Assembly (NCBI GenBank): GCA_020353515.1
Contig: CP070695.1
Span: 2,390,966 to 2,454,965 of the forward strand
Direction of reading: 5' to 3'
Length of the DNA: 64,000 bases
Source: Candidatus Heimdallarchaeota archaeon
GTDB lineage: Archaea; Asgardarchaeota; Heimdallarchaeia; Hodarchaeales; Hodarchaeaceae
The notes beneath the pieces are model-generated. The model made no database searches, had not been told where the DNA came from, and saw only the letters and a program-made list of their open reading frames with translations. The position numbers and the translations under genes are program-made. Below, in pieces: positions 34,015-46,027 of this stretch. Within the stretch, counting starts at the first letter, position 1, and the number at the start of each line of letters is the position of its first letter.

Positions 34015-34716
34015 GTGAGAAAAATGAGTGAACCAATTGTTGAAATCGATTCTCTTTCTAAGGATTATCAAACTGGTGAAATTACCGTCCGTGCTTTAAC
34101 TGGTGTGGATTTACAAATCGAAAAGGGGAATTTTGTAGTGATTCTTGGGCCCAGTGGATCTGGAAAAACCACGCTACTCAATTTAATTGGTGGTATTGAT
34201 GCACACACAAGTGGATCGATTAGAGTTAATACTAGAGAATTAACTAAATTAACTGAAAAGCAACTCACTGAATTTCGTAAAGAAGATGTTGGCTTTATTT
34301 TTCAATTCTACAATTTAATTCCGACGCTTACAGCTGTTGAAAATGTGGAGTTAGCTGCGCGACTAAGGTTTCCACGTCGTATAGCATATGAACGATCTAT
34401 GAAGATGTTGAAGACTGTAGAGATGGATGATAAAGCCCTAAAATTTCCATCACAACTTTCAGGGGGAGAACAACAGCGTGTGGCGATTGCACGCGCCCTT
34501 GTAAAGGAGCCAAAAATCGTTCTAGCTGATGAACCAACAGGGAATCTTGACACAGAAACAGGGGAGCGAATATTAAAAGAAATGCTAAGAATTTGTAAAG
34601 AAGAAGGAACTACCTTCCTAATTGTTACTCATAATGTCACAATTTCAAAACTCGCAGATTATATAATATATTTGAAAGATGGACAAATTTTTGGTACATC
34701 AAAAGGTCAATCATAA
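34015..34716 (+). CDS. LolD/MacB-type ABC ATPase
   Basis: [33 protein letters not shown]. Confidence 0.95.
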   Translation: MRKMSEPIVEIDSLSKDYQTGEITVRALTGVDLQIEKGNFVVILGPSGSGKTTLLNLIGGIDAHTSGSIRVNTRELTKLTEKQLTEFRKEDVGFIFQFYNLIPTLTAVENVELAARLRFPRRIAYERSMKMLKTVEMDDKALKFPSQLSGGEQQRVAIARALVKEPKIVLADEPTGNLDTETGERILKEMLRICKEEGTTFLIVTHNVTISKLADYIIYLKDGQIFGTSKGQS

Positions 34717-34733
34717 AATGAGGAGGGTCAATC

Positions 34734-37160
34734 GTGTTACTACTACGAAAAGTGATCAGAGATCTTAGGAAGAATAAAGCTCGTTCCTTACCTATCATCA
34801 TTCTGATTTCAGTTAGTCAGGCTGCTAGTATCCTCTACATCGAAGTTGGTGTACTTATGGATGCTAGCTGGCAACAATACTTTCAAGAAGGAAATGTCGG
34901 AGATGTTTGGATAGATACAATTCCCATATCTCCAACTGTTTTCAATCAATCAGTTCTAAATAAATGGCAACAGATATACTCAATTAAGACAATCCAACCA
35001 AGATTATACTTTAAAGGGCATCTAATGGTACTTAATAAGAAGGTACCAGTTGAAATTGTCTCATTACCAGCAAATAATTCAAACTCAGTTAATAGTATAA
35101 TAACAAAAGATAGAAGTTACTTTACGGATTATTCTGAATTTAATGGTGTCTATATTGAACAATCATATCTAGAGTTTCATAATCTTGAAAATATTAAAGA
35201 AATACCACTCACGATTGATTTTGGCACACACTCAAAAGATCTGAATCTCACATTACTGGGAGGAGCTTTTAGTCCTGAATACCCAATGAAAGCAGGTGAG
35301 GGAGGATCTCAACAACAATTTGAGTTTTCAGCAACGTTTGCACAATATTTGACAATGAGTATCTTCCTAAGAACTGATTATCTACAAAAGGAATTATTTC
35401 AAGGCCAAGAGATTTATAACCAAATTTGTATTTCTCTAACTGATAAAAGTGAAATAAATTCTTTTATTCAATATTTACAGACAGATGAATCACTTCTGAA
35501 TATGTACACTATAGACATAAAGAAATATCCGGCTTTAATTGAGGATATGGCTTTTATCATGATTTGGGTTGGATTTGGAGTAGCATTTTTCTTTCTTCTT
35601 ATATCAATATTTCTAACCTATACTGTAGTTAATCGGTTTATTGACGAACAAAAACCACAGATCGGAGTTATGAAATCATTAGGATATTCGAATGGCTATC
35701 TCTTAAGAAGAAATTTATTTTATGGGGTTGTTTTAGGATTTATAGGTTCCTTTTTTGGGAATCTTGTTGGAGGATGTATTGGGATAGTCATAGCAGATCT
35801 TGCGCTAGGGTCATGGCTTTCGCTTCCATATATTGTAATTACCTTACCCACCAAAGAATTCCTCATATTGCTTTGCATTACCATTATGATTTCCATATTT
35901 GCTTGTTATGTCTCTGCTCGTAGAATTCTTAGAATTTCCCCTCGGGCTGCTATTCAACCAGTCATTCTTGAAAGAAATATTACTACATTTATTTTAGAAG
36001 ATATTTTTCAAAAAATATTTCAATTTCGATTATCTGTACCCGCTAAATATTCCATTCGTAATGTTTTCATTAATCCTAAACGTACATTAGCAACAATTAT
36101 CTCACTACTCATGGCTGTTGCTCTTGTTGGTGGAGTATTAACAATTGTTGCTAGCGTTTTTGAGGGAGGGTCTTTAATGTTTGAATCTGAAAATTGGGAT
36201 GCTCAGATCACTCTTACAAATGCTCAACAATATTCAGAGGTTAAATTCGATATTCTAAATCAAATTCCAAATCACGAATCTATCATTCTGGAACCTATGC
36301 TAATTGATTTCGCTAAAATAAGAGAATCAACAGATAATAATGATATATGGACCAAAATCACCTTTACAGCTCTACCTCTGAATCATAGTTTAATAATCCT
36401 TGACTCCCTCTCAACGGGATTCTCTAGCGAAACATCAGTAATGATTTCCTCAGACCTTGCTAAACAACTAGAGGTTGATATTGGGGATCAGTACACACTA
36501 CTTGGACGAAATGGAACACAACAGACCGTTGATATCCAAATAATACTACCACAACACCATGTTTCTAGTTTCTATATCCCAATTTCTCTAGGAAATTACC
36601 TGTCGTTTGGAAATAGTACAAATCAGATGGTAAATGGCATTCTTCTCGCAGGACTGGCATCTGAAGATGAGATTACTCCATTGAGTAGAAATTATTCCGT
36701 CATATTGAAGTCTGATCTGATAAAGCAAACAGAGTCTTGGTATATGATGATGAGCTCAATCCTATTTGGAGTACTCTTCCTAGTCCTTATAATCGCTGGT
36801 ATGATCATTTACTCGATTATGTCTATTAGCATTGCAGAACGAAAGGATGATCTCACCATTATGCGATCACTAGGTATCCATAATAAGAATATTTACCTCT
36901 GGGGAATGTTGGAAGTGCTGATTTATTCGCTATTGGCAAGTGTAGGATATTTTATTGGATTCTACATATCTGCCTGGTACATGGACATCCTACAGCAACT
37001 CATGCAACAACCACAAGGCGTTTTCAAATTGTCATTCACTCATTACCTATTAGCATTGAGCTTTGGATTTGCAGCAGCAACACTGGGACAATTCTTGGCT
37101 CTTCGTTATGTGTTAAAACAGAGAATTGCTCTAGTTACAAAAGAAAAGATGTTTGGTTAA
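34734..37160 (+). CDS. FtsX/MacB-like ABC permease
   Basis: EQKPQIGVMKSLGY, ERKDDLTIMRSLG; 8 TM helices. Confidence 0.9.
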   Translation: MLLLRKVIRDLRKNKARSLPIIILISVSQAASILYIEVGVLMDASWQQYFQEGNVGDVWIDTIPISPTVFNQSVLNKWQQIYSIKTIQPRLYFKGHLMVLNKKVPVEIVSLPANNSNSVNSIITKDRSYFTDYSEFNGVYIEQSYLEFHNLENIKEIPLTIDFGTHSKDLNLTLLGGAFSPEYPMKAGEGGSQQQFEFSATFAQYLTMSIFLRTDYLQKELFQGQEIYNQICISLTDKSEINSFIQYLQTDESLLNMYTIDIKKYPALIEDMAFIMIWVGFGVAFFFLLISIFLTYTVVNRFIDEQKPQIGVMKSLGYSNGYLLRRNLFYGVVLGFIGSFFGNLVGGCIGIVIADLALGSWLSLPYIVITLPTKEFLILLCITIMISIFACYVSARRILRISPRAAIQPVILERNITTFILEDIFQKIFQFRLSVPAKYSIRNVFINPKRTLATIISLLMAVALVGGVLTIVASVFEGGSLMFESENWDAQITLTNAQQYSEVKFDILNQIPNHESIILEPMLIDFAKIRESTDNNDIWTKITFTALPLNHSLIILDSLSTGFSSETSVMISSDLAKQLEVDIGDQYTLLGRNGTQQTVDIQIILPQHHVSSFYIPISLGNYLSFGNSTNQMVNGILLAGLASEDEITPLSRNYSVILKSDLIKQTESWYMMMSSILFGVLFLVLIIAGMIIYSIMSISIAERKDDLTIMRSLGIHNKNIYLWGMLEVLIYSLLASVGYFIGFYISAWYMDILQQLMQQPQGVFKLSFTHYLLALSFGFAAATLGQFLALRYVLKQRIALVTKEKMFG

Positions 37161-37175
37161 AGACAAATTCCATAT

Positions 37176-40100
37176 TTATTGAATAATCGGTATTTCCTCT
37201 CGAGGGATGCTCTCTTTAGATACTAAGATATTTACTTCAGGACTACTTCCTACCCAAAGGGCTTTGTATACTACTTTTGTCTTAACCTTAAGAATCTTGA
37301 AGATGTCTAATGCTTCATTAAGAATTAAGGGTGGTAGATCTCTTAATTTGTTTTGAGCAAGAGACTTATCAAAAAGGTTTATTTGGGCTTGAGGATCTTC
37401 GATATTAACATCTAGATTAGATTTAATAATTACCAAGCGTTTAAGTGCATTTAATGATGATCTAGAAATATTCTTACTTATTGGATCCCCCCGCTTTATT
37501 CTCTGTTCAATTTCCTTTAAACGCTGACAATCTATCAGGAAGGGGGAAAGAAGAGTTAATGGGAAATGCTGTTTAAACACTTTTTGTGCAATAGGGCCTA
37601 CAAAGCTTTCTTCCACAACCCCCAATTCAGGTAGAGATATCTTTTCTTCAAGACCTCTTGCAATAGCGATAAATGTGGACTTAATGTATTCTGGGGGTTT
37701 CTCTTTCAAAAAGAGGAAAATTCTAAATGAAGGGGAAGAAATAATCTGGATTTGAACCTTATTCTTCTCAATAACGCTTGTTTTAATATTATCCTTTGTT
37801 TGATTATCAAATAAATCGGAGTCTGTTTCAATGAAGTAATTGACGATATCTGATTGAAATGATTCTAAAAAGGTATCGATCCCAACGGAAAGACCGCTTA
37901 ATACATCCTGTATCGCATTGCTTGATTGATACATAATATTGCTGACGCTATAGACAGGGAGGCCTACAGCTGTGGTCGCTAGGATCACATAAGTGTTCAA
38001 TATGGAATCTAACTTCTGTTGAAATTCACTGATATCAAATAACTTCTGTTTTTTACGTTTTTGATAGGTAGTTGAAACTAGATAAAACAGAGATACAACT
38101 AATACCGTAACCACAACTGTTAAAATGATAGCTTCTATAAGAAAGTCAAACAAGGAAGGAGGAGGTAGGAGGAAAGTGTAATCCTTACTGATTGAATTCT
38201 TCGAGTGATAAACTGAATCATACACCTCGATGAACCATTTAAAAGTAACTGTTCTGGTAAAAGACAACTCAGTTATATGATAGGTTTGATTAAAAGTCAT
38301 TAGAACTCTATTAATGTGTAAATCTGACCCAAATCCGCCTGTATTTTCTGGAGAAGTGAATTCATAGTTCAGGTACACTTCAGAGACTCCTGAACCCCAA
38401 TCTGAAACATTAACCCAAAAAAGTACTGTTGTTCTGTTAATCTCTTCAATTCCAGCCAAATGGATTATTGGTTCCCACCAATCAAACATCTGACTTGAAT
38501 TAGTGTATATACTTGCCTCATAATAACCCTCAAGGACTCCATAATCAATTATTCGCATATAATAAGAGAAATTATGCATATATTCAATAGGTAACATAAA
38601 TGTATAATGAATCTCGTTAGATATCATCCTCGTTTCAATTAAAATCCATTTGTCAAGGGTATTATCTATCACTGATAGTGTTACATTATGCGAGTTGAAT
38701 GGATCATGAATCTTACACCAGAATAAGATTTCTCCGATATTTGATACTGATGCATTTATTCCATAGTTCACCATTCTTGCGGGTTGAAAGTCGGATGTCT
38801 TCTGATTAATCTCTCCTATGCTTAGGTTATTGAATGCCTTATCATATAACAAAATGTTGTAATTAAAGGATTGATTACAATCCATGGTAATTGAATGTAT
38901 ATAATGTGTTCCATTATAATGCATTTTTGCAGTTTTTGTACCTAGATTTTTTCCATTAGGGCAATTTATTGTTAGATTGACTCCATCAATAGAACCAAAA
39001 GGGTCAGAAGCTTCAGCCCAAAAAATAAGATGACTCTGATATTGATTCAGAGTTGTGTTTCTATAACCAAAATTATTACAAATTGGATCTGTTTTATCAT
39101 ATATCACTACTTCTTGTGGTGTCGTATAATCATAATTTTCACTCTTATCAAAGGCAGTAATATAATAATAGAATGCAATTCCAGGTTCAAAACCATGGAT
39201 TGAGTAAGTATAAAAATTCCCAGAATGATTCCACTGCATAGTTTCAGTTTGATGGTGTATATGAGTATAATCCAAGAGTACAGATGAATTATCATCAAAT
39301 AATCCACTACCATCGTCTATTACTTCAGCCCAGATTGTAACAGTCCCATTCTGAAACACAATTGCATCTGTTCCTTTAATTTTAGGAGGAGCATGATCAG
39401 AAGTTGTTATAATTTTAATAATGTCTCCCAGATTCCCTGCGTTGTCATTTACCCAGACTTTAATTTCCACTTCTTCTCCAAATGGAAATTCATAAGATGT
39501 TTTATAACGATAAAAAGTATCGTATTCCATTTCTATTGTTATATTGTTCCCTGAATACGCAAAATTAATGTAGAATGAATTGTTTACATAATGAGTATCC
39601 CCAAATGGATCGATTGCGTACGCAAAGACGGTGATCTCGCCATCTTTCTCTGTAGAGCTTTCAATTGAATATATAATCTCTGGAAGAACTGTATCAGACA
39701 ACGTAAAGTTCGAGGCTTGATTAATTCCAGGATTAAACCAATTCTGTGTTGTATCAACTGTGGATACATAATACCAAAGATTCTGTAAATTGTATTCAAG
39801 TGAATAAACACGAACAAAATATGTAATATCAGATACTTGATACATTGAGAGATTAGTCCATGAACCAAAATAATTCTGTGTATACAATAAATATGCAGAG
39901 GTATCATTAAAAGGCCAATCAGTAATTTCAGCAAAGAAGTCTACTGTACCATTTCCCCAGTCTGTTTTCCAATAAGAAGCGATTGGTACTGAATTATCAT
40001 GTATAATGAACGGTCCCCGTGTTTCAGATGAATTCGGGTTGTTAGCATAATCTGATACAGTAATCCAATAATAAATAATATCATTGTATTCAAACTCAAA

Positions 40101-43100
40101 ATTATAATAATAATGGTCTTCTGATTCAATCATAACGAAGGAATGGGTTTCACCATTTATATTAACATGTAATTGCACACTACTCTCATTTATGCCGCTT
40201 TGATAATGATTTTGATCTTCAACAGATACGTAAATCTCTACATGACCATGATAATGAGTAATAAAATTGTCTATGATATCACCTTCATTAATTGGGGGTG
40301 ATTCATGGTCTTCAGGTATAATTGTGTGAAAAGAAGGAGTTAAGGATAATTTTGACCCATTTTCATTACCCAGGCTATCGACAGCAGAATAAATTGAAAA
40401 ATTCAACAGCTCACCATAATATGCTTCGATATAGCACACCCAAAACCCAGAAGCGTTTTGATGCATATCTACAAAAGAATCATTTATCTGCAAGACAACA
40501 GGATCCATAACTAAACTCATATTATCAGTAATATTTGCATAAAATTGAAGAGTTCCATTACCATAATCAATAACATCATATTCGACAATATTGGGAGGAA
40601 AACCATCACCTAAGTATAAAGAATACAGTTGTGTTACCACAGTATTGTTAGCTATATCAATTGCTATAATATTGTAGAAAATCTGGACATTTCTATGAGT
40701 CAATGTATCAAGTGCGGTTGCATTATAATATTGGTCACCATTAAATGCCTCCATTGTAAAATTTTCATGAATAAGCACTACCTCATTTGTTATATTGACA
40801 ACAGTTAAATTCAGAAGCACTTCGAATTTACTCCAATCCGAGACATCTGTAAAGAAAGTTGAGGCATTGTCAAGGAGAATAGATTCATTCATAAAATAGA
40901 CATTCTGGATTGTTGGAGGATCATTATCGATAAATTCGGAGATTCTTATATTGAGTTCAAATTTAGGATTAATTTGATAAGTCGAATTAGCTGAAAATTC
41001 AAGGAAAGAAAGTGTACTGTTAACCGAGTCTTCAAACTCAACTGTTATATTATAGTAATCATAAGGTAGATTTGTAAAAGTAGTGTATCCTGTAATTGTC
41101 GTATTTTGGGTCCAATTAATAGCTGTATTGTAAGCATTTGTAATGTTCACCCTAGCATTGGGAACAATTCTATTGTCTAAGTCTAAAACTTTAACACGCA
41201 CCGTTGCATTCTCAGGCCCTCTTTGAAGGTCCGCGATGGTAATTCCATATACATCATTATTTTCATTATCAAAATAAATTGTATAGAGTCTTTCCGATGA
41301 AATGAAATTAGTTCGTAAGGCAATCCATGCAGCTTGTACAGTGCTCACTTTTTTTTCTGATCCCCATGTGTTCCCCCCATCAGTCGAGTTTTTTATATAA
41401 ACTGTTTTATCGCTGATATAAATTGCAAATAAAGTATTATTTGAAATATCATAAGCAGGTTTTACTTCATCTCCACCTATTCCGCAATTCGTGACCACAT
41501 CAGTCTTTTGATTCCAAGAACGGTTATGATCAAAAAATATCCAAGTTTCTAAATCCCCTGTTGCATTTAGAACGTCATTATTAAGTGTAAGATAAATTGT
41601 ATGAGTATTTGGATTAATTGTTGCTCCCCAATTAGCATTATTATTATAATTATCCTCTGGAGCCTCTATTTCAGAAATGATTGTTGTTACAAAGGTTGGA
41701 GAGGCGTCCCAGGCATTCAAGTCACTGTGATACACAAAAGAATAAAGGGAGTTGGCCGTAGAGTCCTCATAAATACAAAGGACATCCCCATCACTTAAAG
41801 GAAGGAGCTGTCCATGATCATCATCATCATTAAGAAAAGAGTAGGAGGGTGTAATGTCATACCAACTTGTATTATGTTTTGCAAATTGAGGACCATTATA
41901 CATCCAAGAAGCGCCAAAAATATCTCCTTCAGTTGTAACTGTTACAGCACCTCCCCCATCAGGCGCATTGTGGGACCCACCTGAAGACATAATTACTGAC
42001 CACCCACCACCTGAAGTGTCATCTTTTGTATCAAGGTAATTATATACCATTTGATCGTTCAAGATTGAATTTACAATAATATGAATCTTAGTACCAGTAT
42101 TATTAGGTGTCCACTGATCAAACCAACAACTGAAACTGCGAAACCGATATTCAGGGGGACCACAATCAATATTCACTGGACCTTCCCAAGTAGTTCCATT
42201 ATCAATTGTTTTATAATAAACAATTTCAGCCATACCCCCATTTGTCTTTTGGAAAAAGAGATATCCGTGAGAATCGTTAATAAAAACAATACTGGGTCCT
42301 GGATTATATTCATCTGTAGCATCATATACCGCATTATCAATAATGATCTCTAATCCATCGGAGGGAACATCGTGATCTCGTTGCTCTTCAATACCAACAA
42401 CATAGAAGTTTGTAGGATCATGTTGGTTATTATACTCTGTTGTGATCCAATCCGTAGACATCACCCCATTAAAAAGGCGTAACTCATCAATTACACCAGA
42501 AAATTTCTCATCTGCAGCTTGATCAAGAGTAACACGACCAATTCGATAATCTCCAGTCGTTCCAAAGGTAGGAATACCAGTGATAGATCCAATACCCCCC
42601 TCACTGACACTATCCTTATATATAAGTCCTACACCATTCGTCCTATCGTTCGTTGCGACTATATGAATCCACGTTGTTCCAGGCCATGATCTAGTAGCAC
42701 TATCTACATATTCAAAACCCCCTCCTCCTTCCACTTTTGAATAAAGACCTCCGTCAGTGTTATGTGAATTATCAGTACCAGCGAATGTTAACGCCATATC
42801 ATAATTTCCAGTGTAAAAATGACCAAAGATAGGCATAGATTCACTAGAAGTATCGTCGAAAGTAGTATCTAATCGCACCCATGTTGAGATACTATAATTT
42901 CTTGATCCGATACCAGGATTCCATACACCTAGATTAATATAATCATCAATTCCATCGAATCTTCGGGCCCGACCAATTTTCCCCACCTCATCAATAGACC
43001 CTTGGTTTGTTCCATCTGGACTATTTAAGGAAGAACCCGTTAAATCTGTACCCAAATGCCATACTCCAACGTAATTATCACTCCAAACACCCGTGGTATT

Positions 43101-43718
43101 TTCTTGACTTCCAATGGTAGAATTCCCATAATACATTGAAATAGTGGTATTTACATCACTTGAGAGAAACGGAATCCGAATCCATGCGACAAGTAACGCA
43201 TGAGAGCCATTGAAGGCCACATTAAAATGCTCGATTTCGTGATCCAGTGTTTTGTTTAATGAGTCTATGAAGATTATATCATCCCCATCTACTTGTGTAT
43301 CATAACGAAGATCATTATCATAAAGTACAACAAGAACTGGAAAATCTCTTAAATTAGCTGCCACATTATCTGAATCAATAGTGATATTTTTACGATACTG
43401 AAAAGAAGGAGCTGCCCACCCTTCTACTTGAATATCAGCTTTCACAGGGAACGAATCAAAAGATGCTTCCTCTTTTATAAGGTCAGTACTCTCAGTCAAA
43501 TCTGAATTCACAAGGTTTAATCCTTTACTAACACTATTAGGTAAATCCTTACTGAATGTATCACTTTTAAGCTTTAATACTTTTATGGGATCATTTCTGC
43601 CATCAGATGCTTGATTGCTGAGAGAGAACGCAGTAGCGACAAATTGAATAATAAATATTACGAAAAGCAGGTATGTGAGAAATTTAAGCCTCAATTTCCA
43701 TCTTTTGCGTTCAAACAT
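37176..43718 (-). CDS. Giant receptor-like surface protein: DUF2341, LamG, Asp-box region, about 9 Ig-like repeats, TM, cytoplasmic longin/roadblock-like domain
   Basis: N-terminal signal; YRKNITID..DFPVLV..LDHEIE..AWIRIP..MYYGN (DUF2341); FDGIDDYI..FSGVIDELR (LamG); TIDNGTTW and STDGGNTW Asp-boxes; repeated D..PP.I starts; TM IILTVVVTVLVVSLFYLV followed by KRKKQK; about 300-aa cytoplasmic tail. Confidence 0.8.
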   Translation of the reverse strand: MFERKRWKLRLKFLTYLLFVIFIIQFVATAFSLSNQASDGRNDPIKVLKLKSDTFSKDLPNSVSKGLNLVNSDLTESTDLIKEEASFDSFPVKADIQVEGWAAPSFQYRKNITIDSDNVAANLRDFPVLVVLYDNDLRYDTQVDGDDIIFIDSLNKTLDHEIEHFNVAFNGSHALLVAWIRIPFLSSDVNTTISMYYGNSTIGSQENTTGVWSDNYVGVWHLGTDLTGSSLNSPDGTNQGSIDEVGKIGRARRFDGIDDYINLGVWNPGIGSRNYSISTWVRLDTTFDDTSSESMPIFGHFYTGNYDMALTFAGTDNSHNTDGGLYSKVEGGGGFEYVDSATRSWPGTTWIHIVATNDRTNGVGLIYKDSVSEGGIGSITGIPTFGTTGDYRIGRVTLDQAADEKFSGVIDELRLFNGVMSTDWITTEYNNQHDPTNFYVVGIEEQRDHDVPSDGLEIIIDNAVYDATDEYNPGPSIVFINDSHGYLFFQKTNGGMAEIVYYKTIDNGTTWEGPVNIDCGPPEYRFRSFSCWFDQWTPNNTGTKIHIIVNSILNDQMVYNYLDTKDDTSGGGWSVIMSSGGSHNAPDGGGAVTVTTEGDIFGASWMYNGPQFAKHNTSWYDITPSYSFLNDDDDHGQLLPLSDGDVLCIYEDSTANSLYSFVYHSDLNAWDASPTFVTTIISEIEAPEDNYNNNANWGATINPNTHTIYLTLNNDVLNATGDLETWIFFDHNRSWNQKTDVVTNCGIGGDEVKPAYDISNNTLFAIYISDKTVYIKNSTDGGNTWGSEKKVSTVQAAWIALRTNFISSERLYTIYFDNENNDVYGITIADLQRGPENATVRVKVLDLDNRIVPNARVNITNAYNTAINWTQNTTITGYTTFTNLPYDYYNITVEFEDSVNSTLSFLEFSANSTYQINPKFELNIRISEFIDNDPPTIQNVYFMNESILLDNASTFFTDVSDWSKFEVLLNLTVVNITNEVVLIHENFTMEAFNGDQYYNATALDTLTHRNVQIFYNIIAIDIANNTVVTQLYSLYLGDGFPPNIVEYDVIDYGNGTLQFYANITDNMSLVMDPVVLQINDSFVDMHQNASGFWVCYIEAYYGELLNFSIYSAVDSLGNENGSKLSLTPSFHTIIPEDHESPPINEGDIIDNFITHYHGHVEIYVSVEDQNHYQSGINESSVQLHVNINGETHSFVMIESEDHYYYNFEFEYNDIIYYWITVSDYANNPNSSETRGPFIIHDNSVPIASYWKTDWGNGTVDFFAEITDWPFNDTSAYLLYTQNYFGSWTNLSMYQVSDITYFVRVYSLEYNLQNLWYYVSTVDTTQNWFNPGINQASNFTLSDTVLPEIIYSIESSTEKDGEITVFAYAIDPFGDTHYVNNSFYINFAYSGNNITIEMEYDTFYRYKTSYEFPFGEEVEIKVWVNDNAGNLGDIIKIITTSDHAPPKIKGTDAIVFQNGTVTIWAEVIDDGSGLFDDNSSVLLDYTHIHHQTETMQWNHSGNFYTYSIHGFEPGIAFYYYITAFDKSENYDYTTPQEVVIYDKTDPICNNFGYRNTTLNQYQSHLIFWAEASDPFGSIDGVNLTINCPNGKNLGTKTAKMHYNGTHYIHSITMDCNQSFNYNILLYDKAFNNLSIGEINQKTSDFQPARMVNYGINASVSNIGEILFWCKIHDPFNSHNVTLSVIDNTLDKWILIETRMISNEIHYTFMLPIEYMHNFSYYMRIIDYGVLEGYYEASIYTNSSQMFDWWEPIIHLAGIEEINRTTVLFWVNVSDWGSGVSEVYLNYEFTSPENTGGFGSDLHINRVLMTFNQTYHITELSFTRTVTFKWFIEVYDSVYHSKNSISKDYTFLLPPPSLFDFLIEAIILTVVVTVLVVSLFYLVSTTYQKRKKQKLFDISEFQQKLDSILNTYVILATTAVGLPVYSVSNIMYQSSNAIQDVLSGLSVGIDTFLESFQSDIVNYFIETDSDLFDNQTKDNIKTSVIEKNKVQIQIISSPSFRIFLFLKEKPPEYIKSTFIAIARGLEEKISLPELGVVEESFVGPIAQKVFKQHFPLTLLSPFLIDCQRLKEIEQRIKRGDPISKNISRSSLNALKRLVIIKSNLDVNIEDPQAQINLFDKSLAQNKLRDLPPLILNEALDIFKILKVKTKVVYKALWVGSSPEVNILVSKESIPREEIPIIQ

Positions 43719-44008
43719 TTCATTATACTCTTGAATTTTTCAACCTTTACCAAGTAATGACCAGAGTCTCCTCTAATACTTTCTCAAGTTATAAAGGAAT
43801 TCCAACGCGTGGAAGCTCTAGCAGGAGAGAACTTCTACGACAAGTTCATTTGGGGCATATGATGAGCAGCAAGTATAAGTTAGGGTAGAGATTATTAAAA
43901 TTAACCAAATAAAATATGCGAAAACGTAAAAAATACTTAAAAGAAATTTTATTCATTCGTTTCCCGATAAAAAACCGTAATCTGTTATTAGCGGAACAAT
44001 CCTTCCTC

Positions 44009-44569
44009 TTATTGATATAATTTTGTAATTATCATTTCCCCAAGTGCAGAAAAAGCATAATCAACATTTGTTCCATCTTTAGCAGAAGTAGAGTAATATT
44101 CGATCTGTGAGTCTATGTTTGAGTATTTATTGACTAAATTATTGTCAATATGATCCCTCACAGTGTTAAAAGAAATTTTGATCTCATCAATCAAATCCAT
44201 TTTATTCCCTAAAACAATTATTGAGGCACTAGGTAATTCAATATTTTTTGAAAATTCTTTAAGCCACCTTTCCATGTTTTCCAGAGATCTTGGCCTAGTA
44301 AGATCAAAAACTATAAATGCTCCCGCTGATCCTTTGTAATACAATCTTCGTACTTGATCGAAAGCTGGTTGACCAGCTAAATCCCAGATTTGAAACCGAA
44401 TATCTTTCGGACCATATTCTGTATCTAAAGAAACTTGTTTAGATTGAAAATCTGAACCTAAAGTTGGAGTATATTCTAATGGAAACCCTTTTCCAAGATA
44501 CCTGTTGATTAGAGAGGTTTTACCCACCTCACCATCGCCCAGTATGCAGATTTTCGCAAGTAAAGTCAA
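44009..44569 (-). CDS. Rab-like small GTPase, copy 2
   Basis: GDGEVGKTS, YTPTLG, WDLAGQ, NKMD, SAK; no C-terminal Cys prenylation motif. Confidence 0.95.
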   Translation of the reverse strand: MTLLAKICILGDGEVGKTSLINRYLGKGFPLEYTPTLGSDFQSKQVSLDTEYGPKDIRFQIWDLAGQPAFDQVRRLYYKGSAGAFIVFDLTRPRSLENMERWLKEFSKNIELPSASIIVLGNKMDLIDEIKISFNTVRDHIDNNLVNKYSNIDSQIEYYSTSAKDGTNVDYAFSALGEMIITKLYQ

Positions 44570-44594
44570 TTCACAATCATTCTATTTCTAATGT

Positions 44595-44620
44595 AATTAA
44601 ATTTAAAAACCTAAAGTAAT
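44595..44620 (-). promoter_or_regulatory. Duplicated promoter of GTPase copy 2
   Basis: Plus-strand aattaaatttaaaaacctaaagtaat closely matches 45332-45356; contains minus-strand TTTTTAAA. Confidence 0.5.
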
Positions 44621-44728
44621 TACTACTTCAGTATTTTATCACATAAAAAAGGGATAAAAACTCTCCACTCCTGATCTCGTTCTTAATATCATCATTTATA
44701 TTATTCTAGGATAATTCCTAGCCAATCT

Positions 44729-45304
44729 TTACAAATCTCCCTTGGAGGAGTAATGTAGTTCAATTATTCTCCTCCCAAGTAGAGAAAAAGCTTTGTCTAC
44801 GTTTTCCCCAGTCTTTGCAGAGGTTTGGTAATATTCAATATGAGGATCTACGTTTGAGAATTTATCCACCAAATGATTATTTATATAACATTCAATAGTG
44901 TCGGGAAAAACCTTAACTTCATCAGTTAAATCCAATTTGTTCCCTAAAAGGAATATGGATGATTTTTCCGTTTGTATATTCTTCGAAAATTCATCTAGCC
45001 ACTTGTCCAAGTTTTCTAAAGAATCAGAGTAGGTTAAATCGAACACCAGGAATGCACCTGCAGATCCTTTATAGTACAACTTCCGAACTTGATCGAAGGC
45101 TGGTTGACCAGCTAAATCCCAGATTTGAAACTGAAGATCTTTACGACCTAATTTCGTGTCCAAAGTAACCTGTTTACTTAGAAAATCGGATCCTATTGTG
45201 GGTATATATTCTGTCGTAAAACCTCTTTTGAGATAGCTACTCATTAGCGATGTCTTTCCTACCTCCCCATCACCAAGTAGGCAGATCTTCGCAAGTAGAG
45301 GCAA
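44729..45304 (-). CDS. Rab-like small GTPase, copy 1
   Basis: GDGEVGKTS, YIPTIG, WDLAGQ, NKLD, SAK; close paralog of 44009..44569. Confidence 0.95.
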   Translation of the reverse strand: MPLLAKICLLGDGEVGKTSLMSSYLKRGFTTEYIPTIGSDFLSKQVTLDTKLGRKDLQFQIWDLAGQPAFDQVRKLYYKGSAGAFLVFDLTYSDSLENLDKWLDEFSKNIQTEKSSIFLLGNKLDLTDEVKVFPDTIECYINNHLVDKFSNVDPHIEYYQTSAKTGENVDKAFSLLGRRIIELHYSSKGDL

Positions 45305-45421: not shown

Positions 45422-46027
45422 TCAACTTGATTTGATCTCATCAAAAGCATTCATTATATCTTCTGCTATCATTTTTCTTTTACTTTTTTCAATGAGATAA
45501 TTTTTCCCTGTTTGTAGATATGAAGGAAACGCTCGCTTTTCTTTGTAATAAAATTTTTCTTTCCGAATTTTATAAGTAGAACCACTAGGTATGACTCTTT
45601 TGCCTATTTTTCGTTTAGTAATATAGTAAAAAGCTTTAATTGCAACATCCCCCATTAACAGGAAACATTGAACATTTGGAAATTGAGATATCTCTTTCTC
45701 CAATATTTCTGAACAGTTTTTTATTGTTGCTGCTGAGACTGAATAACCAATCTTTCCACATTTAATTGCTGTGGTAATGTATACACCCTTGTCAAGAATT
45801 TCATCTATACTCGAAACATTGATACCTGCATCCTTGAAGGCATTAATCGTTGTTTCCAGATAAAATGGATTATTATCAGCATAAAAATAATCTTTCAAGT
45901 TATGTGGTGGAGCTTCTGAGATCATCAGTATTTTAATTGACTCAGGATCAATATCTATATCAGGTCGTATATAACACTCCTTATTAATGTCTTGACAAGG
46001 AAAATTATGACAATCTACGTCTTTCAC
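45422..46027 (-). CDS. Uracil-DNA glycosylase-like family protein
   Basis: ILMISEAPP, YITTAIKC, IKNC..ILEKEI, LLMGDVA. Confidence 0.8.
   Translation of the reverse strand: MKDVDCHNFPCQDINKECYIRPDIDIDPESIKILMISEAPPHNLKDYFYADNNPFYLETTINAFKDAGINVSSIDEILDKGVYITTAIKCGKIGYSVSAATIKNCSEILEKEISQFPNVQCFLLMGDVAIKAFYYITKRKIGKRVIPSGSTYKIRKEKFYYKEKRAFPSYLQTGKNYLIEKSKRKMIAEDIMNAFDEIKSS

Follow-up and report, generated by a model that had tools for sequence, protein, structure and literature searches.

A giant archaeal surface glycoprotein with a predicted longin tail and its genetic coupling to one clade of Rab-like GTPases

What is a giant surface protein doing beside two small GTPases? The question is raised by a 64,000-nucleotide stretch of the genome of Candidatus Heimdallarchaeota archaeon (assembly GCA_020353515.1, contig CP070695.1, positions 2,390,966 to 2,454,965 of the forward strand), a single-contig genome of 4.94 Mb. 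In this stretch, hereafter the window, two intact genes for Rab-like GTPases (P0003 and P0002) lie upstream, on the same strand, of a gene for a 2180-amino-acid (aa) protein (P0001), to which a preliminary description of the locus had assigned a sequon-rich ectodomain, one transmembrane helix and a cytoplasmic tail. The open reading frame (ORF), the hydropathy profile and the N-x-S/T sequons, of which 59 fall in the ectodomain (1823 aa) and 2 in the tail (296 aa), bore this out (Table 1). By prediction and comparison we established this architecture, the longin fold of the tail and the genetic coupling of such tails to one dedicated Rab-like clade. On balance, we lean towards a reading in which the tethered longin tail of this giant surface glycoprotein would dock and regulate its anchor-less neighbour GTPases.

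Fold of the cytoplasmic tail

The tail (nt 37176-38066) was modelled with AlphaFold2 from an alignment of 40 homologues, with a predicted local distance difference test (pLDDT) score of 85.6 and a predicted template modelling (pTM) score of 0.81. In the model, a juxtamembrane helix (aa 1887-1907) precedes a domain formed by tail residues 22-172, in which two strands (24-31 and 36-41), a long helix (49-79), three strands (94-100, 103-109, and 113-119), and two helices (125-141 and 152-166) follow one another. This is the beta-beta-alpha-beta-beta-beta-alpha-alpha order around a five-stranded antiparallel sheet by which a longin domain is recognized, and it reproduces the beta-beta-alpha-beta-beta-beta-alpha order that had been read from the tail sequence in the preliminary description.

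Sequence searches with the tail gave little. Against Pfam, no match was obtained even at E ≤ 10, and none of the longin/roadblock families Longin (PF13774), Robl_LC7 (PF03259), Sybindin, Sedlin_N, and Fuz_longin_1 matched it above the curated cut-off; phmmer against the PDB returned only noise (E > 0.3), and a profile of the 40 tails found nothing there. Among the 40 family members, one matched Fuz_longin_1 at E 3.6e-4 and one Robl_LC7 at E 0.12.

Structure searches with the model all pointed to one superfamily. Foldseek against the PDB placed TRAPP sedlin/Trs20 at the top, together with Sec22b, Ykt6, roadblock, and LAMTOR proteins, and every row with a probability near 1 was a longin or roadblock domain. 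The VIA structure search, which is independent of Foldseek and covered 48,161 chains, ranked synbindin (Z 9.9), Sec22 (Z 8.8), sedlin (Z 8.7), and a Lokiarchaeota longin (Z 8.4) highly, with CPLANE, Lst4, MglB, and Mon1-Ccz1 further down and all 50 of the top 50 rows in the longin/roadblock superfamily. When the top 1000 Foldseek matches were re-aligned and ranked by Z, Sec22b (over 124 of 128 aa) and Ykt6 (over 128 of 137 aa) both reached Z 10.2; the 37 chains at Z ≥ 8, among them Fuzzy LD1 (Z 9.0) and Trs23 (Z 8.9), were all longins. The tail had been called longin/roadblock-like; the superfamily stands, and since the longin matches were both longer and higher-scoring, longin is the better name. 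We conclude that tail residues 22-172 adopt a longin fold in the predicted model. Conservation among the tails peaks in the strands and the first half of helix alpha-1, and the conserved residues include R114, Q70, and the S56-G57 helix.

The remaining ~110 aa form a second domain, which the preliminary description had not set apart. This helical domain is conserved, and AlphaFold2 modelled it alone with a pLDDT of 92. Its best VIA match was the MccB N-domain (Z 5.4), followed by the winged helices of Fur/Zur and Rpa2 (Z ~4), and Foldseek returned no match at E ≤ 0.001; the model is thus weakly winged-helix-like, with no clear relative. Chain 8adl_S of the SEA complex matched it at Z 3.6 only, and the GATOR1 NPRL chains were not among the top rows; no NPR2/NPR3 Pfam match was found in the 40 tail members, although the tail may be related to the NPRL2/NPRL3-like longin proteins all the same.

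An exhaustive HMMER search of 1.84 billion protein representatives recovered 54 representative clusters with a tail module of ~280 aa, C-terminal in all of them, on proteins of 250 to 2550 aa. A transmembrane segment directly precedes the tail in 39 of the 40 aligned members, and sequons number 3 to 6 per 100 aa before this segment versus 0 to 1.4 in the tail, so that an outside-transmembrane-inside topology is a trait of the family. In a 400-genome sample of the phylum, the module was present in 17 of the 21 genomes of the genus of the window and in 4 of the 379 others. A language-model Atlas search with the tail returned Asgard clusters at 0.90, the recognition lying below the reliability mark; the nearest structural clusters were from Promethearchaeota (Asgard archaea), and a bacterial OmpA-family cluster was among the shape matches (template modelling score 0.37).

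Coupling of tail genes to one GTPase clade

The two GTPases of the window are 66% identical, and their closest sequence matches in the PDB are a Thorarchaeota Rab (7ezb), Rab11, Rab38, and Rab7. Both have Rab nearest relatives and intact G1-G5 motifs (GDGxVGKT, T in switch I, WDLAGQ, NKxD, and SAK); the catalytic Gln is present in both (WDLAGQP in P0003) and invariant in the clade described below (Q67). Neither protein has an N-terminal membrane anchor or a prenylatable C-terminal Cys, the chains ending 8 to 15 residues past the last helix, and a C-terminal Cys occurs in 1 of 18 clade members. We call them Rab-like because they lack a C-terminal hypervariable region ending in such a Cys. Since both kinds of anchor are missing, the GTPases would reach the membrane only through a protein partner.

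To put their position beside the giant gene in context, we compared 20-kb stretches around tail copies in other genomes with the copies in the own genome, 19 informative loci in all. A Ras-family gene lay within 500 bp of the tail gene in 15 of these, compared to 1.3% of own-genome ORFs of at least 300 aa with a Ras-family gene that close. The neighbour is mostly directly downstream of the tail gene on the same strand, and in one subgroup (L037, L038, L043) it abuts the 3' end of the receptor gene with a gap of about 0 to 30 bp. In a tree of 47 Ras-like rows, 28 of them other own-genome paralogues, the tail-neighbouring GTPases fell into one clade with a Shimodaira-Hasegawa-like approximate likelihood ratio test (SH-aLRT) value of 98, comprising 19 neighbours and one orphan; P0003 grouped with the upstream GTPase of the orthologous locus in genome G071. 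Of the 12 clade members that scored best in five other genomes, 10 adjoin a tail gene, and four of five congeneric genomes without the tail (completeness 71 to 93%) also lack GTPases scoring in the clade range, the fifth having an orphan. Tail and GTPase distances were correlated (Mantel r 0.77, a value reached in none of 5000 permutations), which argues that tail-GTPase pairs duplicated and diverged as units.

The adjacency survives rearrangement, including changes of side and copy number and the replacement of a pseudogene. In G071, the counterpart of P0002 (G071:C12:149208-149750, corresponding to L046:13242-13751, minus strand; 75% identity) is a pseudogene with one TAG and three TAA codons; in its place, an intact paralogue with 68% identity immediately follows the receptor gene. 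A Ras-family gene also lies near distant tail members, directly upstream of P0036 and at a distance of 1.2 kb from P0042. The conservation of the adjacency, a check suggested for the locus at the outset, was therefore borne out by the 15 loci, the dedicated clade and the co-divergence.

At the window locus itself, the gaps between the genes are 159 bp (between the GTPase genes) and 290 bp (from P0002 to the giant gene), and contain oligo-T tracts and AT-rich promoter-like elements. With such gaps, the genes are neighbours rather than a tight operon, and the preliminary statement that the GTPases stand immediately upstream holds as gene order only.

Gaps of this size, which suggest separate transcription units, are one reason to consider that there is no direct interplay at all. 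The tail would then serve dimerization, anchoring to the cytoskeleton, ESCRT or another scaffold, or a SNARE-like autoinhibition, and the GTPases would be neighbours by descent in a young genus. A family nearly confined to one genus is expected to keep its synteny; many longin domains have non-GTPase partners; and several tail genes have no GTPase neighbour, namely those of L040, L045, the distant member P0046 and the own-genome copy at 1499658. Against this explanation stands the fact that the neighbours belong to one specific clade out of the ~35 to 50 Ras-like genes per genome, that they are kept through the rearrangements described above, and that the adjacency recurs in a divergent lineage (P0036). 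Genomes without the tail mostly lack the clade as well, and the predicted tail-GTPase complex scored above all of its controls, a weak result taken up below. Taking both sides together, we regard an absence of interplay as unlikely.

The own genome holds three full copies of the tail: that of the window, one on a 715-aa protein directly followed by two tandem GTPase genes, and one on a 1612-aa protein (1499658-1504496) with no clade GTPase nearby. A GTPase gene 2.2 kb from the last was not counted as a partner, as it belongs to another clade of the tree. The 715-aa paralogue (2092034-2098412; L005, L060) occupies a main locus at which other genomes encode 1610 to 1650 aa; just upstream on the same strand are a 596-aa ORF with BNR_2 and a 671-aa ORF with fn3, and the three may either be separate genes or represent an ectodomain that has been split or fragmented. 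Of the tail profile, only the longin half is matched by two other giant membrane proteins of the own genome (2115591-2118758, L061, and 3373679-3379798, L062; E 3.5e-7 and 0.004, respectively). The L062 protein also has DUF2341 and Laminin_G_3, like P0001; no GTPase gene was found within 20 kb of either, and longin-only matches of a similar kind occur in most genomes of the genus. In three other genomes, tail-bearing giant genes stand in tandem (1619 and 1907 aa in L037, G063:C69; 1624 and 1653 aa in L038, G062:C152; 2399 and 1942 aa in L039, G061:C224) and share one or two GTPase genes, forming a small receptor array.

Possible action of the tail on the GTPases

In the reading that we favor, the membrane-tethered longin domain would be a docking and regulatory platform for the neighbouring GTPases. 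Its likeliest activity may be GTPase recruitment together with nucleotide exchange, which we suggest tentatively, by analogy with the longins of TRAPP, Mon1-Ccz1, and Fuzzy-Inturned. A GTPase-activating protein (GAP) activity, such as that of MglB and of FLCN- or NPRL2-type proteins, seems improbable by comparison, and a similarly low probability is given to pure GTP-dependent anchoring or effector binding of the SRX/SR-beta type. The sites on the membrane at which the switch is on might then be determined by engagement or clustering of the ectodomain. Signalling from the surface receptor to the GTPase, as put forward in the preliminary description, would be one direction of action; control of the surface protein by the GTPase would be the other.

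Binding of tail and GTPase was approached by complex prediction for two tails with P0002, each with its own alignment, next to three controls. The score was 0.39 compared to 0.00 for the best of the three controls, a result graded as weak support, with runs agreeing in at least 59% of contacts and a partner pLDDT of at least 72. The calibration set had 80 solved complexes, of which 58 attained that mark, and 110 mismatched pairs, of which 2 did so; scores of 0.60 or lower came from only 7 of those 80 solved complexes and from both passing mismatched pairs. The modelling thus passed, for P0002, at a weak level, and the prediction would add only a small increment to the case for binding.

The evidence of coupling would be the same if control ran from the inside out, with the GTPase as the upstream switch and the longin tail as an effector or cargo tag. 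The GTP-bound GTPase would bind the tail to sort, cluster, position or turn over the adhesin, for example on protrusions, and no information would pass from outside to inside, much as SR-beta binds the SRX longin domain or as adaptors are recruited in an Arf-dependent manner. The SRX longin of the signal recognition particle (SRP) receptor is among the structural matches of the tail (5ck3, 1nrj, and 7obq; Z 6.7 to 8.2), and the same tail on proteins of such different length with very variable ectodomains is what would be expected of adhesins sharing one sorting handle. By computation this arrangement cannot be told from regulation by the tail; no vesicle or adaptor machinery was found linked to the locus, and we consider inside-out control to have a low probability.

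Several points weigh against docking and regulation of the GTPases by the tail. No catalytic residue could be assigned in the tail by reference to known GTPase interfaces, among the conserved R114, Q70, and S56-G57 either. Many longin domains, such as those of SNAREs and the adaptor protein (AP) sigma and mu subunits, do not regulate GTPases, and the known longin guanine nucleotide exchange factors (GEFs) and GAPs are dimers or larger assemblies, as opposed to the single longin domain of the tail. The complex score lies in a range that, for such models, would more often be wrong than right without a strong prior, and longin-GTPase complexes in the training data may have contributed to it through memory. 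Co-transcription of the GTPase genes and the giant gene at the window locus appears unlikely from the intergenic sequences. The Mantel correlation reflects linked inheritance, not contact, and the 15 of 19 loci are not independent events, nearly all coming from one genus and many from orthologous positions. Clade GTPases are lacking near the 1612-aa paralogue, its likely counterpart L040 and P0046, and conversely about one orphan clade GTPase per genome lies away from any tail gene. Such orphans are found at 2491674-2492231 (minus strand) in the own genome, where the gene is a close copy of the GTPase at 2090474-2091040, and at G074:C39:216827-217387, G063:C87:25576-26130, and G068:C104:7145-7696; the contig of the clade-range GTPase of G068 is 16.6 kb long and holds no tail gene.

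The wider locus and its place among known systems

The features of the giant gene and the GTPase genes are collected in Table 1. P0001 has the predicted makeup of a type-I surface glycoprotein, with lectin-like, propeller-like, and Ig-like modules in its ectodomain. The DUF2341, LamG, and Asp-box elements listed in the preliminary description were recovered. The Asp-box region (aa ~460-830) has no Pfam match and is probably a BNR/sialidase-like propeller; at the paralogous locus, an ORF next to the receptor gene matches BNR_2. Of the "about 9 Ig-like repeats", the number proved right: in a MAFFT alignment, nine repeats share the skeleton 'D..xPxI ... f.a.v.D ... Y.i.a.D..N', and their Ig- or cadherin-like fold is presumed from this pattern.

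Table 1. Features of the giant gene and the two GTPase genes, with positions counted from the first nucleotide of the window
Feature	Position	Strand	Evidence
Rab-like GTPase 1 (P0003)	44729-45304	-	191 aa, TTG start; Pfam Ras E 3.6e-41
Rab-like GTPase 2 (P0002)	44009-44569	-	186 aa, TTG start; Pfam Ras E 4.2e-39
Giant single-pass surface glycoprotein (P0001), predicted	37176-43718	-	ORF of 2180 aa, hydropathy, sequon count
N-terminal signal peptide or anchor, predicted, aa 9-35	43614-43694	-	Hydropathy scan
DUF2341, aa 144-211	43086-43289	-	Pfam E 2.6e-9, above cut-off
Laminin_G_3 / concanavalin-A-like lectin domain, aa 255-425	42444-42956	-	Pfam E 2.5e-13, above cut-off
Two-Asp-box region, aa ~460-830	41229-42341	-	Motifs at aa 504 and 778
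Prealbumin/Ig-like unit, putative, aa 839-917	40968-41204	-	CarboxypepD_reg E 1.5e-5 and Big_1 E 0.008, both below cut-off
Nine repeats of ~100 aa, aa 931-1851	38166-40928	-	Periodic 'D..xPxI' starts, MAFFT alignment
Transmembrane helix, predicted, aa 1859-1884, followed by a Lys/Arg-rich stretch	38067-38144	-	Kyte-Doolittle score up to 2.88
Cytoplasmic longin domain, predicted, aa 1907-2057 (tail residues 22-172)	37548-38000	-	AlphaFold2 model and structure searches
C-terminal helical domain, predicted, aa 2058-2168 (tail residues 173-283)	37215-37547	-	AlphaFold2 model

Other neighbours in the window include an ABC transporter, a uracil-DNA-glycosylase (UDG)-like protein and a saccharopine dehydrogenase. 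An ABC ATPase and an 808-aa FtsX-type permease (34015-37160, plus strand) are convergent with the giant gene, a gap of 15 bp separating them from its 3' end, and the same permease also adjoins the giant-gene orthologues in L046 and L050. The GTPase pair is directly preceded by a gene for a 201-aa protein of the UDG superfamily (45422-46027, minus strand; GTG start; Pfam UDG E 2e-8), apparently missing from the corresponding position of the G071 locus. The sequencing runs listed as containing the window stretch are sediment-metagenome DNA runs only, with no RNA run among them.

The pairing of tail and GTPase is a variation on the theme of longins and small GTPases. TRAPP (synbindin/Trs23, Bet5, and sedlin), Mon1-Ccz1 (Z 7.1 to 7.3), and Fuzzy-Inturned/CPLANE have the same longin fold and likewise a Rab-type GTPase as partner. 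However, these are soluble multi-subunit complexes, whereas the tail consists of a single longin and a helical domain on a giant transmembrane glycoprotein. The tri-longin Rab GEFs (Mon1-Ccz1, Fuzzy-Inturned, and HPS1-HPS4) in particular are heterodimers with three longins per subunit, as against one in the tail, and no relation of the tail to eukaryotic longin Rab regulators was found at the sequence level, by Pfam or PDB profile match. The longin SNAREs Sec22b, Ykt6, and VAMP7, which include the best structural matches (Z 10.2), also hold a cytoplasmic longin on a membrane-anchored protein. In SNAREs, however, the longin stands at the N terminus, ahead of the SNARE motif and the membrane anchor at the C terminus; they have neither an ectodomain nor a partner GTPase gene, while P0001 has the order ectodomain, transmembrane helix, longin, and no SNARE motif.

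Among prokaryotes, described Asgard systems are from the same phylum, and share the same logic of longin/roadblock and Rab-like proteins; the tail matches Asgard roadblock and longin structures (8yqg, Z 8.5, and 9jue, Z 8.0). The systems include an operon of a LAMTOR1-like protein, a Rab-like GTPase and a DENN protein, as well as NPRL2-like longin fusions (Liu et al., bioRxiv 10.1101/2020.10.19.343400), and structures have been described for Asgard roadblock, longin, and Rag-like proteins (PMC10933270). The partners in these systems are soluble, or fused to two-component domains or to a GTPase, in contrast to a longin that is the tail of a surface receptor with its own GTPase clade. MglA-MglB is also a pair of a prokaryotic Ras-superfamily GTPase and a roadblock/longin-superfamily partner, although MglB is a soluble roadblock homodimer and matches the tail at Z 7.5 to 7.9, below the longins. 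We also considered bacterial Group 1 Rup (Rup1) GTPases, which lack the G3 glutamine and are encoded near a membrane protein that has a conserved cytoplasmic domain (Wuichet and Sogaard-Andersen, PMC4316618). The window locus is not such a module: its GTPases keep the Gln, the Rup1 membrane partner has an N-terminal cytoplasmic domain, a transmembrane segment and a periplasmic OmpA domain, the reverse of the topology of P0001, and the companion genes differ, those for the Rup1 coiled-coil protein and output enzyme being absent here. In the literature searched, we found no description of a surface glycoprotein that carries a longin as its cytoplasmic tail and is paired with a Rab-like clade of its own.

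In the Asgard archaeon MK-D1, roadblock/longin genes and GTPase genes as a rule do not share operons, which leaves the pairs unmatched (Tran et al., PMC10933270). Asgard genomes hold dozens of Ras-superfamily GTPases and many longin/roadblock proteins that gene order does not match, and the family described here offers partners matched by their genetics: a longin tethered to the membrane and the Rab-like clade that belongs to it, both small, soluble, and expressible. The pair bears on whether archaeal longins act as GEFs or GAPs, on protein tethering as a replacement for prenylation, and on the coupling of surface receptors to GTPases in close relatives of eukaryotes. It also addresses how anchor-less archaeal Rab-like proteins reach the membrane: such proteins lack prenylation sites, and protein-protein contacts have been proposed to localize them there (Surkont and Pereira-Leal, PMC4915359). 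A bolder and rather doubtful possibility is that the locus represents an archaeal prototype of receptor-to-Rab signalling and Rab membrane identity, in which a contact- or ligand-sensing glycoprotein with its own longin-type exchange factor would, where contact is made, recruit and activate a Rab-like GTPase that has no lipid anchor, with a separate co-evolving GTPase for each receptor paralogue. If this were true, GEF-driven targeting of Rabs to membranes would predate prenylation and endomembranes in the lineage nearest to eukaryotes.

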